A DNA stretch of 29,739 bases from an uncultured Nitrososphaerota archaeon (GTDB taxonomy: Archaea > Asgardarchaeota > Njordarchaeia > Njordarchaeales > Njordarchaeaceae). Shown one piece after another: positions 305-7,902 of this stretch; positions within the stretch are counted from its first letter, which is position 1, and every line of letters begins with the position of its first letter. The notes beneath the pieces were generated by a model that worked only from the letters and a program-made list of their open reading frames with translations, searched no databases and was not told where the DNA came from. Made by a program: the position numbers and the translations under genes. The stretch lies in contig CAZFGR010000020.1 in NCBI GenBank assembly GCA_964518475.1, positions 1 to 29,739 on the forward strand. Reading direction: 5' to 3'.

Positions 305-1810
305 TCACAATTTTTTAATGATACTCATAGCTTTGTGCCATTTAGATAACTGTTTCTCTTTCTTTGGTTCGAAAATTTTCTCGATTTCTGGCTTTTTATG
401 TATATTCTTTATTTCTCTTTTTTCTAGTCCTCCTTTCGTCAGAAGAAAGACTCCTCTTGATGTTCCTTCCAGGTTTTTTACTCGTATTATTCTCTTGCCC
501 GAGAAGTCAGCGATTGCTTGTAACATATAATCGTTTCTTGAAGCATTACCGTCAGCAATTATTTCCTTTATTTCTATCTTAGTAATTTCTTCAAGGATTT
601 TAATAACTTCGCTACATCTGAAGGCTATACCCTCAAGTAGCGCTTTAATTACATCTTCTTTTTTAGTTGCTCTTGTTATGCCGTATATTAATCCCTTAGC
701 ATTAGGGTTCCAGTAGGGTGTGCCTAGACCTGCTAAGGCTGGGATAAAAATAGTGTCTTCAGAAACTGATTTTTCTGCTTTGATCGAGGCTTCTTCAGGG
801 GACTTAATCAAGCCTATACTCACTAGCCAGTCTATTGCTGATCCGGTGCTTTGAATTATTCCTTCCAAGAGGTAGCGTACTGTTTTTCCGACCTTTAACG
901 CAACTAGGGGATAAGTACCGAGCCTAGCTGGTTGAGGAGTTTCCCCTACGTTAATATCTATAAATGTTCCCGTACCATTCGTCATCTTTACAGTGCCTTT
1001 TCTTAATCCACCAGCAGAGAACAGGGATGCTTGCTGATCCGCTATTACTGCTGTTAGAGGAGCACCGTCTAGAATTGTTATTTCCCCGAAATACCCCATA
1101 TTATCGATGAGTTTTGGCAGGATACTCTTCGGTATACCTAGCATTTTTGTTAGTCTATCGCTCCATTTCATGAAGAATGGGTCGAATAACCCAGTAGCAC
1201 TAGCGTTTGTATAATCAGTTGCGTGAATTCCAATCATTTTCCATATTATCCAAGAATCTATCGTACCGAATGCTAACTCTCCATTCTTTGCACGCTTATA
1301 AATATCCTCTATATTCTCGAAGAGCCACTTTAAGTGAATTATGGGTTGATTAGGACCGAGTTTGAAGTTAGCTAGAGTTAGGAGGTAAAGGATTCTTTTA
1401 TTTCGAGAATGTTTTACTACTAGAGAAATCGTTTTACCAAGTGTTCTAGCGAATTTTAGCAATAATTGTTTATTGTATTTCTCTGCTATATCTATTGCTC
1501 TCGTATCCTGCCATGTGATCATATTGTAAAGAGGCTCTCCCGTTGATCTATCCCACACTATAGTGGAGGCTCTCTGGTTAGCCAGCCCAACAGCTAGTGG
1601 TTTACCGAATTCGTTATAGATCTCCATAATCACATCTCTAACCATTTCCCATAATTTCTCAGGATCTTGCTCCACCCAACCAGGTGATGGGAATCTAACT
1701 GGTGCACTTTTCTCAACTTTCTTAAGAATCTCTTCGTTAGGAGAATACGCGAAAGCCTTAACGGTTGTTGTGCCGACGTCCAATACGAGATAATACGTCA
1801 TTTTATACAT
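305..1810 (-). CDS. glpK: FGGY-family glycerol kinase-like protein (GK5-like subfamily)
   Basis: LDVGTT, PGWVEQDP, NQRASTIVWD, WQDTR, FGTIDSW, TDYTNASATG, DQQASL, GTGTF and LEGIAF motifs; basic/hydrophobic insert after WQDTR and ADQQ/GTGTFxDIN/YPL signatures recall GK5. Alternative start ATG at 1801. Confidence 0.88.
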   Translation of the reverse strand: MYKMTYYLVLDVGTTTVKAFAYSPNEEILKKVEKSAPVRFPSPGWVEQDPEKLWEMVRDVIMEIYNEFGKPLAVGLANQRASTIVWDRSTGEPLYNMITWQDTRAIDIAEKYNKQLLLKFARTLGKTISLVVKHSRNKRILYLLTLANFKLGPNQPIIHLKWLFENIEDIYKRAKNGELAFGTIDSWIIWKMIGIHATDYTNASATGLFDPFFMKWSDRLTKMLGIPKSILPKLIDNMGYFGEITILDGAPLTAVIADQQASLFSAGGLRKGTVKMTNGTGTFIDINVGETPQPARLGTYPLVALKVGKTVRYLLEGIIQSTGSAIDWLVSIGLIKSPEEASIKAEKSVSEDTIFIPALAGLGTPYWNPNAKGLIYGITRATKKEDVIKALLEGIAFRCSEVIKILEEITKIEIKEIIADGNASRNDYMLQAIADFSGKRIIRVKNLEGTSRGVFLLTKGGLEKREIKNIHKKPEIEKIFEPKKEKQLSKWHKAMSIIKKL

Positions 1811-1814
1811 CCCT

Positions 1815-2960
1815 CTACTTAATTATTTCTGTCAGAAACTCTACAATATCATAAGCTTTTCCACCAACTAGTTCTAGGCCCTTCTTTGCGGAGGGAGATG
1901 CCGTTACTATGATGTCTGACTCTTCTAGTAATTCAGTAAGTCTTTCTCTGTTAATGTTCTCCAGAAGCGCTGGATCAATCCAGTAAAGAGGATTGAGAAT
2001 ACCAGCGTAGAATGTGTTTTCTCCATGCCTCATAGGTAATTTTAGTTCTAGCCCTGGGATTTTTGAAAGAATTTTAACAAGAATATCCTCTTTCTTAAGC
2101 CCTATGGCGAGTTTAGGAGGTTCATGGATAGTTACTGTTTCATGTTTTTCGGAGAAGTTTACTACGTTTAGTCTTTCTTCTAATATTTCTGTGATGTGTT
2201 TTACTGGTGGCTTTACATTCACTTTAAATCGTGGATAAATCACTCTGTAGGTATAGACACATTCGGGACATAGGGAAACGATAGCTTTCGGCTTATAACT
2301 ATTTATTATCTGGGAGTTCTCAATAGCTATTTTAGTGAATGTTTTATCATCACCAATTTCATAAAGCAAATAGCCACAGCACATTTCCTCAGGAATTACG
2401 AAGGGTTTGAAGCCAAGACGCTCTAAAAGATTTACTGCTTTATTAATTAATTCTGGATAAAAACTCCTTGTTATACAGTCCTGTAGAAGTAATACCTCAC
2501 CGCCCTGGGGGTATTGGTTAAATTTCTTTTCGATTTTCCCAAATGGATTTCTATTATCTACTATTTTATTATATAATGTCTTGATTTGCTCTGGAACATT
2601 CCCACTTTCCAAAGCTCTGTTTCTTAATCCCCTAGTAAGCTCTGAGACTCTAAAATTAAAGAAACAATGAACGTAGCAACCGTCACATGATAGACAATAG
2701 TACAGAGGTTCAATATTCTCAGGCAATAAGTCTAGATGGTTTCTGCTTAGTAGATAACCGATGCGAGATTTCCCGCTTGGCGAAGTAGTCTCTCTGCCAT
2801 CTACGATAGCTACTGGACATGCGTATCGGCACATATTTGGACATAAGGCGCATTTTACAATATCTGGAACCTTTGATTTTTCGAAAAGAATCTTTCTGAG
2901 CGCACTTAGTTTTGTTCTAAAGGAGCTTCCTTTGATAGCTTCGAGTATCCAGCTACCCAT
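1815..2960 (-). CDS. Fe-S oxidoreductase (GlpC/GlcF/HdrD-like; two 4Fe-4S motifs plus CCG domains)
   Basis: CALCPNMCRYACP and CLSCDGCYVHC ferredoxin-type motifs; first CCG domain QDC…CCG…LCPEC; second CCG domain lacks Cys (HEPP…YAG…ASPSA). Confidence 0.88.
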   Translation of the reverse strand: MGSWILEAIKGSSFRTKLSALRKILFEKSKVPDIVKCALCPNMCRYACPVAIVDGRETTSPSGKSRIGYLLSRNHLDLLPENIEPLYYCLSCDGCYVHCFFNFRVSELTRGLRNRALESGNVPEQIKTLYNKIVDNRNPFGKIEKKFNQYPQGGEVLLLQDCITRSFYPELINKAVNLLERLGFKPFVIPEEMCCGYLLYEIGDDKTFTKIAIENSQIINSYKPKAIVSLCPECVYTYRVIYPRFKVNVKPPVKHITEILEERLNVVNFSEKHETVTIHEPPKLAIGLKKEDILVKILSKIPGLELKLPMRHGENTFYAGILNPLYWIDPALLENINRERLTELLEESDIIVTASPSAKKGLELVGGKAYDIVEFLTEIIK

Positions 2961-2962
2961 AT

Positions 2963-4396
2963 TTATACCCCCATATTACCCCTATTTAATATCGCCTTAT
3001 TATCAATTGCTCGCTTTATCTTCTTCAAAATATTCATAGCGGTGTCACCTAGATATTCTTTAATCCATTTAGCTCGCATTCTACCAATACCATGATGATG
3101 ACTAATTGCTCCTCCATGCTTTAGAGTCGCCTCCATGGCCGCCTTCCACACTTTTTCGTAATACTCTGTTGGAGAACTCCCCTTAGGAGGTAGTCCACCA
3201 AAGATGAAGTAGAAGCATACTCCTTGAGAATAGAAGTGCGATGCGTGGGCGTAAGCTATTAGTGTTCCTTCAACACCTCTTATAGCGTTTATCACGTCAT
3301 TATAAAGAGCAACAGCTTTTGACCAGGGAATAGCTACTTCAATCGTATCGATTACTATTCCCAATGGAGCGTATTCTGGTAACTCACGTACATCAAATCT
3401 CTTATCTAACCAGTACTTAACTGGTTCCTCTCCCATAGGTTCGGCATTGCTAAACTCTTCCTCAACTATCTGCTTCTCCGCTTCCACTAATTTTTCATCG
3501 CCTTCAAGTATTATTATTGTCCCGATTTTCCCTTTGGCTTTCTTCTTCATATGGAACCATTTCAGTGTTTCTACTTTGTCATATATTCTAATAACGGCAG
3601 GTCTTGCGCCTCTCCAGAGAATATTTCTAACCGAGTTCAATGCATCTTCAAGTGTTTCGCTAGCAAATGAAATAAAGATTCTCTTTCTAGGATATGGGTG
3701 AATCTTCAAGTACGCTTTCGTTACTATCCCAAATAACCCTTCCGCCTCTATGAATAATTTCTTAAGATCAGGGCCAATAGCTGCTCTTGGGTCAGGTCTC
3801 AATAGGAGGACTTCTCCAGTAGGAAGAACTGCTTCAAGACCTAGTAGCATGTCTTCAATACCCCCATATTTGGTGGAGAATTGGCCAATTGCTTTAGTGC
3901 TTATCCATCCACCGACCGTGGATGCGTATAAGGACTGGGGAAAATGCCCTAGCGTATATCCTTCCTTGTTAAGATATGTTTCGAGAATCATACCGTTGAT
4001 TCCGGCGCCTACTTCAACGTAGAGATCTTCTTTGAAAATTTTTATGTGTCTTAACCTCTTGGTATCGATTACTATTCCTCCATATTCAGGTACCGCTCCA
4101 CCCAAGACCCCTGTGCCGCCTCCGTATGGATATATGGGTATATTGTTTTCATACGCATATTTAACGACTTTAACAACATCCTCCGTGGATTCAGGAAAAA
4201 CAACAATATCAGGAAGAGCTGGCAAACGTCCCTCGAGAAACCATAATAGAGAGATAGGCCAATAATCGTGACTATAGGATACTAGATCAACAAATTTCTT
4301 AGATACTTTTCTTGGACTTAAAATGGTTACGAGATCCTTATAGATCTTATCGATATTTCTCGTCTCTTTCTGAGAAAACACTTCTTTAACCAGCAA
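2963..4396 (-). CDS. FAD-binding oxidoreductase, alkyldihydroxyacetonephosphate synthase-like (VAO/PCMH fold)
   Basis: PDIVVFPESTEDV, PYGGGTGVLGG, GHFPQSLYASTVGGWIST, GQFSTKYGGIED, AHASHFY and C-terminal SHHHGIG (HHH as in AGPS, not the GEHG of GlcD/D-LDH); TTG start with GAGGTGA RBS. Confidence 0.85.
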   Translation of the reverse strand: MLVKEVFSQKETRNIDKIYKDLVTILSPRKVSKKFVDLVSYSHDYWPISLLWFLEGRLPALPDIVVFPESTEDVVKVVKYAYENNIPIYPYGGGTGVLGGAVPEYGGIVIDTKRLRHIKIFKEDLYVEVGAGINGMILETYLNKEGYTLGHFPQSLYASTVGGWISTKAIGQFSTKYGGIEDMLLGLEAVLPTGEVLLLRPDPRAAIGPDLKKLFIEAEGLFGIVTKAYLKIHPYPRKRIFISFASETLEDALNSVRNILWRGARPAVIRIYDKVETLKWFHMKKKAKGKIGTIIILEGDEKLVEAEKQIVEEEFSNAEPMGEEPVKYWLDKRFDVRELPEYAPLGIVIDTIEVAIPWSKAVALYNDVINAIRGVEGTLIAYAHASHFYSQGVCFYFIFGGLPPKGSSPTEYYEKVWKAAMEATLKHGGAISHHHGIGRMRAKWIKEYLGDTAMNILKKIKRAIDNKAILNRGNMGV

Positions 4397-4740: not shown

Positions 4741-5175
4741 CTATTCCTTGCTCATTTCCTTCTGGATCTCCGGTGGAATCGGATTCTCTATTATTAATCC
4801 GTATTTTGGTGCTTTCTTTATTATGTCCTTATCATTTGTAACAATTACCGGGATCTTTTTCTCCAAAGCTGTCGCTATCAGAAAGCCATCCCCCAACGGA
4901 ATGTTCTCCACCATAGCTATATCTAGGCCTCTTAGAGAGACTTGAGTGATTTTTAGATGCGTCACAACTAACTTGAGTTTTTTCAATAGATCTTTCCTTG
5001 GCTGAACCTTGTAGTACCAGTAAAGAACATTATATGTTTCTAGTATCGTGATGGGTGTTACATAAACTTCTATTACGCCTCTAATAGCTTTCTCAACTAT
5101 TTGCCATGCGTAAGGGTGGGCGATGTGGTCATCATAAAGAGCATAAGATAGCATATCCGCATCTATTATTCTCAT
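4741..5175 (-). CDS. vapC: PIN-domain ribonuclease, VapC-type toxin
   Basis: Acidic PIN residues IIDAD…ILETY…LGDGFLIATA…IVTND; 144 aa; directly downstream of an AbrB-type gene. Confidence 0.85.
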   Translation of the reverse strand: MRIIDADMLSYALYDDHIAHPYAWQIVEKAIRGVIEVYVTPITILETYNVLYWYYKVQPRKDLLKKLKLVVTHLKITQVSLRGLDIAMVENIPLGDGFLIATALEKKIPVIVTNDKDIIKKAPKYGLIIENPIPPEIQKEMSKE

Positions 5176-5178
5176 CCA

Positions 5179-5430
5179 TTAACCCCAGTACATGTGTTTG
5201 CCTTCTTCGGCATTTGCTTTAATTTTTTTCTTATCCCCGCGAAGTTTGATACTCTTTATCTTGTTAATGATTTCCTCCGCATCCTCTGCTTTCCTTACTA
5301 TTAGCTCTCCCTCCGGAGTCATCTCAATAACCACATTCGTCCCTGGAGGAAAGACCTCTCTGAAGACCCTTGGAATTAATACTCTACCCTTTCTATCTAT
5401 TTTTGAAAATCCCACACCCAAATCCCACAC
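5179..5430 (-). CDS. vapB: AbrB/MazE/SpoVT-family antitoxin (VapB-type)
   Basis: SKIDRKGRVLIPRVFR…PGTNVVIEMTPEGELIVRK swapped-hairpin signature; 3 nt from the PIN gene; true start may be TTG 5421 or GTG 5415. Confidence 0.85.
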   Translation of the reverse strand: MWDLGVGFSKIDRKGRVLIPRVFREVFPPGTNVVIEMTPEGELIVRKAEDAEEIINKIKSIKLRGDKKKIKANAEEGKHMYWG

Positions 5431-5521: not shown

Positions 5522-6451
5522 TTATTTAATTACTGGAATACTCTTGAGGATATCGTTTATTGATTCTTTTCTTTCAGCGGCCAATCCAGCTACGAACAAA
5601 TCTTTGATCGTTGTCTCCAAGTTCTCACCTTTTATCGGTTCTAATTTGCTGAAATCAATACCAGCTCCAACTTTCTTAATCAGAATTAGGTCTGGTAGGA
5701 AACCCTTGCTGATAATAAGTGTATCGCAAGAAATCTCTTCGATATCGTTGCTATCGTTCTTCATTACCTCTATTCTTTCTAATCTTTTTACTCCATGCAG
5801 TCGTATAACTTGTGCGTAATCTATGATTTCTATATCTTCCCGCTCAATAAATTCCTTGGTATCCTTTCTAATATCTCTATGCTTCTTGTCAGTTACTAGA
5901 TACTTTATATTCGAGCCTAACCCTTTTAAGCGTGTAACAACTTCTTTTACGAGTTCATTGTCTCCGTAGATTACTACATCACGACCAATTCTCTTGTTAA
6001 ATAAATCTACTAGTTTAATAGCTAATAGGGCTGTGAATACTCCTGCTGGCCTACTCCCAACTATCCTGAGATCGTATTGATTTATCTCTTTTCCACCAGT
6101 TGCCAGAACCACCTTTTCAGCATTAACTAAGGTAACTCCTTTGTTGGGATTAACACATATTACCTTAAAACCTTCCTGAAGATCGATCACTGTAGTCTCT
6201 TTCCAGATTTCAACCTCCGCACTTTGCAATTCATTATTTAGATTCATTAGAAGTTCTTGCGGGGCGATCTCTTCTCCAGTGTCTGGATAAGTAATGTTAA
6301 CGTGTCTCAGGTGTCTAAGTATTCCACCTATGGAGGGTTCACGCTCTATTATTAATACATTATCGAATCCATACTCACTAGCTTTTATTCCGAGATAACT
6401 CCCGGCCAATCCAGCACCTACAATGATAAGTTCTTTAGTAATCTCTTCCAT
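5522..6451 (-). CDS. FAD-dependent pyridine nucleotide-disulfide oxidoreductase-like protein, partner subunit of the GlpA-like dehydrogenase
   Basis: IVGAGLAG FAD motif, VVLATGG, GSRPAGVFTA, CDTLIIS, ETTIKDLFVAG; ATG at 6451 follows an AGGTGA RBS overlapping the upstream stop (ORF track starts at GTG 6460). Confidence 0.82.
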   Translation of the reverse strand: MEEITKELIIVGAGLAGSYLGIKASEYGFDNVLIIEREPSIGGILRHLRHVNITYPDTGEEIAPQELLMNLNNELQSAEVEIWKETTVIDLQEGFKVICVNPNKGVTLVNAEKVVLATGGKEINQYDLRIVGSRPAGVFTALLAIKLVDLFNKRIGRDVVIYGDNELVKEVVTRLKGLGSNIKYLVTDKKHRDIRKDTKEFIEREDIEIIDYAQVIRLHGVKRLERIEVMKNDSNDIEEISCDTLIISKGFLPDLILIKKVGAGIDFSKLEPIKGENLETTIKDLFVAGLAAERKESINDILKSIPVIK

Positions 6452-6456
6452 AAAAC

Positions 6457-7902
6457 TCACCTAAAGATCTCTGATCCAGCACCCTTCATCGTGACCTTAT
6501 CTACGGGGATTTTAAGTTCCTCACTAAGAATCCTAATTATCTCTGGTAGACACCGCGATCCCTGGCATCTACCCATGCAAGCATTAGTTCTGAACTTTAT
6601 GGAGTCTATTGTCTTAGCACCTCTTCTTATAGCTTCTCTTATCTCGGCTTCGGAAACATTGTTACAGAGGCATACTACTTTTCCGTATCTAGGATTTTCC
6701 CTTATTGCGTTATCAATTTCGTCAATACTCATATTTGATAATCCTTTGATAGCCTTGCGAACCTCTTTAAAATCGTCTTTTCCAACAAGTTCTAATCCCT
6801 CAGATTGCAGGATTTCTACGATTTTTTTAGCTATGATGTATGATGCGGTTAGACCTGGAGAGAGGATATAAGCAGCGTTTATGAACCCCTTCACCTCTGT
6901 CGGACCTAAAACAAAGTCCCAAGTATCCTCATTAACTGGTCTTACACCAGCATAATACTTCATAACAGCATTTACTGGGAAATCTGGTAAGAGTTCGTGA
7001 AACTTCTTTATGATCATATTTATATCCGATGAATCCACTTCAGTATCTTCTTTTCCCTTAGCTTCAACAAGATTCGGACCCCATATCGGAATCCCATCTG
7101 GGGAAATAGAGATTGCGCCTCCCTTTGTTCTGGGATCCACTCGAAGGGGCATTGGGGCAATTAAATGATTATAATAGTTCTGGAGACCTTGATCAAATAC
7201 CACCATTACTCCTTTACCATGCCACATCTTCCGTTTTCTTATTCCAGCTAATTCCTCTATTTTATCAGAATAAACTCCAGCGGCGTTTATTACAAATTTA
7301 GTCTCAATCCTCCCCTTATCCGTAACTACGGCTTTTATCTCGTTATTTTCTATTTCAAAACCAACAACTTGAGTATTGAGGAGAAAAATTACTCCGTTTT
7401 CAGCGGCATTCTCAGCTAGAGCAATGGCATACTTCACCGGATCCGTTACCCCTGCGGTGGGAACATATATAGCCGCTTTAGCTTTCCTATTCAGCTTGGG
7501 CTCCATCTCGAGAAGCTTCTTCTTCCATATCCACTTAGCATTTATCTTCTTAACAAGACGCAGATACAAATACGCGAAGATCAAGGCAAGAAATTGTACA
7601 AATGATAGCGCCACAATCAGAAGACCTGGCCGCTTAAATGGAATATCGAGCTCCTTAGCCAGTTTTTCAAACTCCTTGTTCCCTTCTAAGCACATCCATT
7701 CCTTATACTTACCTTTATGAGGAACAAAGGGATGTATAACACCCATATTACCCTTGGTGACACCCCACCCAACATCTGGTTCCTTATCTATTGCAACCAC
7801 TTTTAGTCTATATCTAGAGAGCTCTCTTGCAATTGCACAACCTACAACTCCACAACCAATTATAACAACATCAGCTTTTTCCGGCACCTCCTTGGATATC
7901 AT
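6457..7902 (-). CDS. glpA: FAD-dependent oxidoreductase with C-terminal BFD-like [2Fe-2S] domain (glycerol-3-phosphate dehydrogenase GlpA-like, DAO family)
   Basis: IIGCGVVG, TKGNMGVIH, INAAGVYSD, YAGVRP, SPGLTAS; C-terminal CLC…KFRT…MGRCQGSRC; context with a glycerol kinase homolog. Confidence 0.8.
   Translation of the reverse strand: MISKEVPEKADVVIIGCGVVGCAIARELSRYRLKVVAIDKEPDVGWGVTKGNMGVIHPFVPHKGKYKEWMCLEGNKEFEKLAKELDIPFKRPGLLIVALSFVQFLALIFAYLYLRLVKKINAKWIWKKKLLEMEPKLNRKAKAAIYVPTAGVTDPVKYAIALAENAAENGVIFLLNTQVVGFEIENNEIKAVVTDKGRIETKFVINAAGVYSDKIEELAGIRKRKMWHGKGVMVVFDQGLQNYYNHLIAPMPLRVDPRTKGGAISISPDGIPIWGPNLVEAKGKEDTEVDSSDINMIIKKFHELLPDFPVNAVMKYYAGVRPVNEDTWDFVLGPTEVKGFINAAYILSPGLTASYIIAKKIVEILQSEGLELVGKDDFKEVRKAIKGLSNMSIDEIDNAIRENPRYGKVVCLCNNVSEAEIREAIRRGAKTIDSIKFRTNACMGRCQGSRCLPEIIRILSEELKIPVDKVTMKGAGSEIFR

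Follow-up and report, generated by a model that had tools for sequence, protein, structure and literature searches.

GK5 is the least understood of the animal glycerol kinases. The mouse enzyme is cited as phosphorylating free glycerol in vitro (Zhang 2017, as cited in PMC6473107), so GK5, called an orphan in an earlier note on the DNA considered here, is not a complete one; the same source cites hair loss and over-accumulation of skin lipids in mice without GK5. Here we describe a gene that very probably encodes an FGGY kinase of the GK5 subfamily in a 29,739-nucleotide stretch (hereafter, the window) from an uncultured archaeon of the Njordarchaeales (contig CAZFGR010000020.1 of GenBank assembly GCA_964518475.1; 2.33 Mb in 121 contigs, 91% complete). 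The GK5 type appears to be an old subfamily that is widespread among prokaryotes and has its substrate pocket rebuilt, and thermostable, easily expressed proteins together with a conserved operon would allow the family's substrate and role to be tested in microbes.

Two described gene clusters come closest to the one around this gene. PA3026-PA3025-PA3024 of Pseudomonas aeruginosa, in the GliR regulon, resemble it in combining, by published description, an AGPS-like FAD oxidoreductase, a glycerol-3-phosphate (G3P) dehydrogenase, and an FGGY kinase. The authors proposed a glycerolipid role but left the function unresolved, deletion being without a glycerol phenotype (PMC8151288). Unlike the window cluster, these genes are bacterial, the dehydrogenase is of the GlpD type, and no CCG iron-sulfur subunit is reported. 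The glycerol cluster of Thermococcus, in which a glycerol kinase accompanies the GlpTk/NOX/MOX dehydrogenase (PMC11962113), matches the window in its DAO-plus-BFD and Pyr_redox genes beside a glycerol kinase homolog. The Thermococcus kinase, however, is canonical, and an AGPS-like/CCG pair is not mentioned there. Unlike the Thermococcus type, the window cluster is interrupted by a VapBC-like pair, and its 91%-complete genome has no MOX (DUF1667) gene. The survey of such archaeal glycerol clusters covers the GlpTk/NOX/MOX dehydrogenase, not a GK5-type kinase or an AGPS-like pair (PMC11962113), and targeted searches of the literature turned up no account of this archaeal kinase type and operon.

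A predicted GK5-subfamily kinase

The database copy of the window kinase (Table 1) begins at Met4, nucleotide 1801. Its best curated family is TIGR01311 (GlpK), at 373.6 bits, under the 590.35-bit cut-off, and Pfam FGGY_N matches it in two separate stretches. No NCBIfam model specific to GK5 exists, and GK5 proteins match GlpK models only, below or near the cut-offs. An AlphaFold2 (AF2) model computed from a 46-sequence alignment has a predicted confidence (pLDDT) of 94.1 and fits GlpK folds with template modeling (TM) scores of 0.87 to 0.90. With the canonical GlpKs of Escherichia coli, Thermococcus kodakarensis, and Thermus thermophilus, the window kinase shares the fold, the ATP-site and catalytic residues, and roughly 30 to 35% identity; unlike them, it lacks the TGL..DPYFS loop, Glu84, and Tyr135 and has about 20 extra residues.

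The likeness to eukaryotic GK5 extends over the whole kinase, with 37% identity to amphioxus GK5 (P0222) over 462 amino acids and 33% to the kinase domain of Acanthamoeba GK5 (P0204). The closest relatives are from Njordarchaeota/Njordarchaeales metagenome-assembled genomes (MAGs), at 74, 65, 60, 56, and 48% identity, in keeping with the lineage given for the genome, and database searches also pulled in the GK5s of amphioxus, Acanthamoeba, Anopheles, Phlebotomus, Styela, and the ichthyosporean Chromosphaera. Homologs in Promethearchaeota, Spirochaetota, and Solincola already carry the name "glycerol kinase 5" in NCBI or UniRef. We therefore regard the window protein as a well-supported addition to an already known GK5 subfamily, which is sister to ordinary GlpK/GK1 in the sequence comparisons and spans animal, amoebozoan, Asgard, and some bacterial proteins. 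Eukaryotic GK5s differ from the window kinase in lacking an operon and in the extra domains of some copies; the Acanthamoeba castellanii protein is 803 amino acids long, with an FHA domain according to Pfam, and its first ~240 residues fall outside the kinase alignment.

The insert in place of the GlpK loop

The earlier note had pointed to an insert typical of eukaryotic GK5, and this stretch is real: nucleotides 1474 to 1358 encode the quoted string, N113 to L151, exactly (39 codons). When the window kinase was searched with phmmer against solved GlpK structures, the match split in two, with query residues 113 to 159 facing about 24 residues of the T. thermophilus enzyme. We counted the segment from the WQD motif to the K..W helix over 164 family members and found a bimodal distribution of lengths. 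Canonical GlpKs, with TGL..DPYFS, have 39 to 44 amino acids here, whereas named eukaryotic GK5s (amphioxus, Acanthamoeba, insects, and a tunicate) and the Asgard homologs have 57, the window kinase has 63, and most other archaeal and bacterial GK5-like proteins have 67. The alignment with amphioxus GK5 continues through the insert with two 3-amino-acid gaps, and the 6 to 10 residues by which the archaeal forms exceed GK5 sit in the turn between two helices. In the 478-amino-acid kinase of a Thermofilaceae archaeon (P0087), the insert is reduced to a 46-amino-acid segment.

The resemblance goes beyond length and position. We built a hidden Markov model (HMM) from 27 eukaryotic and Asgard inserts with the flanks excluded, on which the window insert scored 8.0 bits, a weak but significant signal reached by none of 2,000 shuffles (maximum, 7.9); canonical GlpK segments scored 1.6 bits or less. 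The window kinase and GK5 also have their inserts at one and the same point, after the WQD motif and ahead of the K..W helix, and share a basic two-helix pattern. In the AF2 model, the helices are predicted at residues 116 to 131 and 138 to 146 and are ordered (pLDDT 89 to 94), and the first of them has the highest hydrophobic moment of the whole window kinase. The net charge of the window insert is about +8, and the means are +7.7 for the long forms, +5.1 for the 57-amino-acid forms, and +0.4 for GlpK. Thus, the insert is, as judged from these comparisons, homologous to the GK5 insert in sequence and not by position alone.

Signature residues and the substrate pocket

In solved glycerol kinases, an Arg-Glu pair, an Asp-Gln pair, and a Trp/Phe sandwich hold glycerol, and a Tyr moves upon binding (PMC7765489). 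We compared these positions, numbered as in E. coli GlpK, between 46 insert-bearing and 110 canonical proteins. Asp10, Thr13, Arg83, Trp103, Asp245, Gln246, Thr267, and Phe270 are kept in all 46 insert-bearing proteins. In contrast, Glu84, the equivalent of the glycerol-coordinating Glu149 of CtGK (PMC7765489), occurs in none of the 46 (Ser, Ala, Asn, Thr, Gly, or Cys stands instead) and in 96 of the 110 canonical proteins, and Tyr135 is found in 0/46 and 90/110, respectively. The window kinase accordingly retains the Arg, Asp, Gln, Trp, and Phe ligands, with Ala81 at the place of Glu84 and Asn154 at that of Tyr135. A polar His or Gln is conserved at the Phe136 position in GK5-type proteins.

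Signatures downstream of the insert tell the same story as the insert itself. The window kinase has WQDTR at residue 100, ADQQ at 257, KMTNGTGTFIDIN at 275, and YPLV at 300, and thus Ala257, Asp285, and Tyr300-Pro301. Pro301 of the "YP" signature is present in every insert-bearing protein (46/46, versus 9/110 canonical proteins), Asp or Asn at 285 of "FxDxN" (within GTGxFxDxN) in 40/46 (versus 8/110), and Ala257 of "ADQQ" in 32/46 (versus 9/110). The statement in the earlier note that metazoan GK5 carries the insert at this position together with these signatures therefore agrees with the alignment, the segment lengths, and the residue counts.

With a basic amphipathic helix-turn-helix where GlpK has the Tyr135 loop, and with Ala in the position of Glu84, the substrate pocket appears to be rebuilt at its far end. 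The residues of phosphoryl transfer and the ATP site are conserved (Asp11, Thr14, Asp258, Gln259, and the GTG motif in the window kinase), and 25 columns are invariant across the 46 homologs. The window kinase is thus predicted to be an intact, catalytically competent ATP-dependent enzyme.

Phylogenetic placement

Insert columns were removed before all trees were built, and FastTree (164 rows) and IQ-TREE (77 rows) were in agreement. The maximum-likelihood trees place the window kinase in the GK5 clade, outside canonical GlpK, which bears out its reading as a prokaryotic GK5 relative. It belongs to a subclade of nine archaeal rows (support 100/99 in IQ-TREE) with partners from Nezhaarchaeota, Thermococcus, Methanosuratincola, Thermofilaceae, and Thermoplasmatota, and this subclade is contained in a 39-row clade with every GK5 type (88/87). 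The canonical GlpK of the same genome groups with E. coli GlpK. In an approximately unbiased (AU) test, joining the window subclade to canonical GlpK was rejected (P = 0.0075; delta lnL, 76), and one clade of all insert-bearing proteins was not (P = 0.44). Weighing against this placement, the AU test used groups that were defined with the tree already in view, bootstrap convergence was incomplete, and the deep nodes have short branches with 86 to 91% support.

Within the GK5 clade, eukaryotic GK5s, Promethearchaeota/Lokiarchaeia proteins, and one Spirochaetota protein form a 19-row clade (87/94). Proteins that bear the name GK5 in Anopheles, Phlebotomus, Styela, Chromosphaera, Branchiostoma, and Acanthamoeba fall in the 57-amino-acid clade. 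First to join the 19-row clade is another group with long inserts (Theionarchaea, Thermoplasmata, Bathyarchaeia, Methanolliviera, and Geothermincolia), and the window group follows, so that, in these trees, the window kinase is not the nearest prokaryotic kin of eukaryotic GK5 but joins two nodes deeper. Promethearchaeota/Lokiarchaeia proteins are also 43 to 45% identical to eukaryotic GK5. The window kinase is thus, by its sequence, a divergent archaeal branch of the GK5 family, and Promethearchaeota, rather than the window lineage, are closest to eukaryotic GK5. The suggestion that the window gene points to an archaeal origin of GK5 fares less well: because the 57-amino-acid proteins of Promethearchaeota/Lokiarchaeia are closer, this gene alone says little about that origin.

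The AGPS-like/CCG/kinase operon

The kinase gene is the last of a tight triad, with gaps of 2 and 4 nucleotides between the AGPS-like, CCG, and kinase genes (Table 1) and the CCG stop codon 4 nucleotides ahead of the kinase start. The call of an AGPS-like neighbor holds: the best solved relatives of the flavoprotein are AGPS structures 2uuu and 4bby, at 211 bits versus 122 bits for LctD, and its IRIYD, CFYF, and SHHHG motifs align with AGPS Arg419, Tyr578, and His615 to His617 (the Tyr578 column being marked by the Y578F mutant chain 4bca). Its closest relative is from a Njordarchaeota/Njordarchaeales MAG, at 79% identity. AGPS (alkyl-DHAP synthase) is a stand-alone enzyme of ether-lipid synthesis with an N-terminal domain and no redox partner; the flavoprotein, in contrast, lacks that domain (477 amino acids versus 584 to 658, with the alignment beginning at AGPS residues 130 to 179) and always has the CCG iron-sulfur gene after it.

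Table 1. Features of the window around the GK5-type kinase gene
Feature	Position (nt)	Strand	Remarks
GK5-type FGGY kinase gene	305..1810	-	501 aa; stop-free open reading frame; FGGY_N and FGGY_C (Pfam)
Insert region of the kinase	1346..1474	-	Residues 113-155; core 1358-1474, residues 113-151
CCG/4Fe-4S protein, GlpC/GlcF/HdrD type	1815..2960	-	Pfam CCG and Fer4_8; weak NCBIfam LdhH, TfrB, GlpC
AGPS-like FAD flavoprotein	2963..4396	-	477 aa; FAD_binding_4 and FAD-oxidase_C
VapBC-like pair	4741-5430	-	PIN-domain protein 4741-5175; AbrB/MraZ-like protein 5179-5430
NOX-like pyridine-nucleotide-disulfide oxidoreductase, G3P dehydrogenase partner subunit	5522..6460	-	312 aa; Pfam Pyr_redox_2/3
Thermococcus-type (GlpTk) glycerol-3-phosphate dehydrogenase	6457..7902	-	Pfam DAO (210 bits) and Fer2_BFD [2Fe-2S]; weak NCBIfam G3P oxidase, GlpA

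We examined 80 loci from species-representative genomes and counted an archaeal locus as well flanked when it had at least 6.2 kb on each side (n = 22). AGPS-like and CCG genes stand beside the kinase in 21 of these 22 loci and a G3P dehydrogenase in 16, the common order being AGPS-like, CCG, GlpA-like, NOX-like, (DUF1667), and kinase. The AGPS-like/CCG/kinase triad also occurs at the 57-amino-acid-type kinase of Promethearchaeota. Among the 22 bacterial loci, mainly from Actinomycetota/Geothermincolia but including single loci from Nitrospirota and Gammaproteobacteria, none had the archaeal partner genes within 8 kb of the long-insert GK5-like kinase. The sole well-flanked archaeal locus without AGPS-like, CCG, and GlpA-like genes is in a Thermofilaceae MAG (L069, 8001-9401), where a kinase of ~481 amino acids is 40% identical to that of the window. 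In Solincola, the GK5-like gene is isolated, with a TetR regulator and a glyoxalase in its vicinity.

The earlier note proposed the operon context as a clue to GK5 function. The linkage is conserved in archaea, but it does not carry over simply to eukaryotes, because eukaryotic AGPS traces back to myxobacteria, and not to archaea, in a published phylogeny (PMC13012113). We also considered the AGPS-like neighbor as a direct clue to a common ancestry of eukaryotic AGPS and GK5 and rejected this, as the top 120 matches in a search with the Asgard AGPS-like protein were archaeal and bacterial only. We likewise discarded E. coli YgcE/YgcU as a counterpart; YgcU resembles AGPS (30% identity), but YgcE, at 21% identity, is a different FGGY kinase that has no insert. 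As a lead, the operon link is useful, though not unique.

Two kinds of glycerol kinase homolog in one genome

A canonical GlpK gene lies on another contig of the same genome (C15; L090:7926-9449, forward strand) and scores 731 bits on TIGR01311. Because the genome holds this bona fide GlpK elsewhere, the window gene is best read as a paralog and not as a degenerate GlpK. A canonical GlpK co-occurs with the GK5-like gene here and in at least 5 of 10 cluster-bearing genomes, and 4 of the 10, including a complete 3.05-Mb Bathyarchaeota chromosome, have no GlpK homolog besides the GK5-like gene. Many archaea annotated with "glpK" thus in fact hold two different kinds of enzyme. The canonical GlpK of this genome has no adjacent G3P dehydrogenase and the window copy of the dehydrogenase is the sole strong one in the genome, so both kinases may feed one dehydrogenase. 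Upstream of the canonical gene is a sulfhydrogenase-like NiFe hydrogenase set with an aminotransferase, and a Hydrolase_4 (monoacylglycerol-lipase-like) gene lies downstream and convergent to it. In a Nezhaarchaeota genome (L004), it is the GK5-like cluster that has a similar hydrogenase set upstream.

Possible substrates and roles

We put at about even chances the simplest function, that the window enzyme phosphorylates free glycerol. It would then yield glycerol-3-phosphate and serve as the dedicated kinase of a unit made up of the AGPS-like flavoprotein, the CCG protein, the Thermococcus-type G3P dehydrogenase, and its NOX-like partner, whose flavoenzymes might oxidize or otherwise handle the triose-phosphate product, and the canonical GlpK elsewhere in the genome would provide for general glycerol uptake. 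The basic amphipathic insert might, in addition, tether the enzyme to the membrane or to a partner. The clustering of a G3P dehydrogenase with the kinase, in the window as in most archaeal loci, suggests glycerol as the substrate, as do the conserved residues around the phosphorylated hydroxyl, the GlpK-like fold, and the genomes in which the GK5-like gene is the sole GlpK homolog. The activity cited for mouse GK5 is counted on the same side.

Several observations weigh against free glycerol. Glycerol binding in the GlpK manner is impossible, because the coordinating Glu and the mobile Tyr135 are missing family-wide. The placement of the insert relative to the pocket is read from an alignment. 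Retention of a canonical GlpK in this and other cluster-bearing genomes argues for a distinct role of the GK5-type enzyme. The near-obligate archaeal link is with the AGPS-like/CCG pair, above the G3P dehydrogenase, and genes for lipid enzymes are neighbors elsewhere: an alpha/beta-hydrolase (Hydrolase_4) downstream of the triad in Promethearchaeota (L093/L094), a PlsC-like acyltransferase upstream on the opposite strand at another Promethearchaeota locus (L007), and a HAD phosphatase and a PlsC-like acyltransferase flanking the Spirochaetota GK5 gene (L092). Kinase activity of the prokaryotic GK5-type proteins is, moreover, a prediction, the proteins being known as sequences.

One alternative, which we consider doubtful, is that the kinase acts at the membrane on a chain-bearing glycerol (for instance, 1-O-alkyl- or acyl-glycerol, or lyso-ether lipids). 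The kinase would form alkyl-G3P, the G3P dehydrogenase homolog would convert this to alkyl-dihydroxyacetone phosphate (alkyl-DHAP), and the AGPS-like enzyme would exchange or cleave the ether, which would amount to ether-lipid salvage or an oxygen-independent breakdown. Loss of Glu84 and Tyr135 in every insert-bearing member would open the end of the pocket distal to the phosphorylated hydroxyl, and the insert is strongly basic in the long and the 57-amino-acid forms and holds the most amphipathic helix of the protein. A partner with AGPS catalytic residues, adjoining hydrolase and acyltransferase genes in other lineages, and the canonical GlpK found alongside in many genomes are also consistent with this proposal. 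However, the model predicts that the insert is ordered and packs within the fold instead of forming a free membrane helix, and AGPS works with no iron-sulfur partner or net redox chemistry, whereas the presence of a CCG partner suggests a dehydrogenase. We had considered GK5 for the orphan alkylglycerol kinase activity (EC 2.7.1.93) in view of the opened pocket, but this is weakened because ACAD10, not GK5, has been shown to be the alkylglycerol kinase of worms and mice (bioRxiv 10.1101/2025.09.10.675409). The cited action of mouse GK5 on free glycerol, the complete genomes with the GK5-like gene as sole glycerol kinase homolog, and the bacterial members with none of these neighbors also speak against a chain-bearing substrate. 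A wider version, in which GK5-family kinases in general, the animal enzyme included, act on a glycerol derivative substituted at the far hydroxyl and the archaeal operon encodes an undescribed oxygen-independent route of ether-lipid remodelling or cleavage, strikes us as improbable; if true, the archaeal operon would reveal the true substrate class of GK5.

We give similarly little credence to the possibility that the substrate is another C3 or C4 compound of the AGPS-like/CCG dehydrogenase (dihydroxyacetone, glyceraldehyde, a glycerate-like compound, or another polyol) or that the product is sn-glycerol-1-phosphate. A rebuilt distal pocket on a conserved catalytic core would suit such a change, as would the polar residue at the Phe136 position, and the flavoprotein/CCG pair is built like hydroxy-acid and alcohol dehydrogenases; the lack of a glycerol growth phenotype in the PA3026-PA3024 deletion points the same way (PMC8151288). 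Yet the closest relatives in sequence and structure are all glycerol kinases, the glycerol-site residues Arg83, Trp103, Asp245, Gln246, and Phe270 are invariant, and the cluster includes a G3P dehydrogenase gene.

That the GK5 likeness is convergent, the window kinase being a hyperthermophile GlpK that evolves fast and has acquired an unrelated insertion specific to its lineage, is largely refuted and very unlikely. It is true that the window subclade departs furthest from the GlpK model (374 bits on TIGR01311, against 548 for the Asgard GK5-type protein and 442 for amphioxus GK5), its insert is somewhat longer than that of GK5, and deep nodes have moderate support. Nonetheless, the insertion point and two-helix pattern are the same, the window insert matches the insert-only profile significantly, GK5 shares the substitutions that lie elsewhere in the protein, the AU test rejects a grouping with GlpK, a normal GlpK is present in the same genome, and the AGPS-like/CCG synteny is common to Asgard proteins with the 57-amino-acid insert. 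A noncatalytic regulator or scaffold is scarcely credible, since, although mammalian paralogs such as GK2/GYKL1 have no kinase activity (PMC6473107) and GK5 is described as SREBP-binding, all of the checked phosphoryl-transfer and ATP-site residues and the invariant columns are conserved and the gene is translationally coupled within an enzyme operon.

Other features of the cluster

The VapBC-like pair separates the G3P dehydrogenase genes from the AGPS-like/CCG/kinase triad in the window, whereas the enzyme genes are contiguous in other archaea, where NOX-like homologs come after the GlpA-like gene. No match to the third subunit (DUF1667/MOX) was found anywhere in the 91%-complete genome. The NOX-like protein of the window has 312 amino acids, compared with ~420 in homologous clusters.

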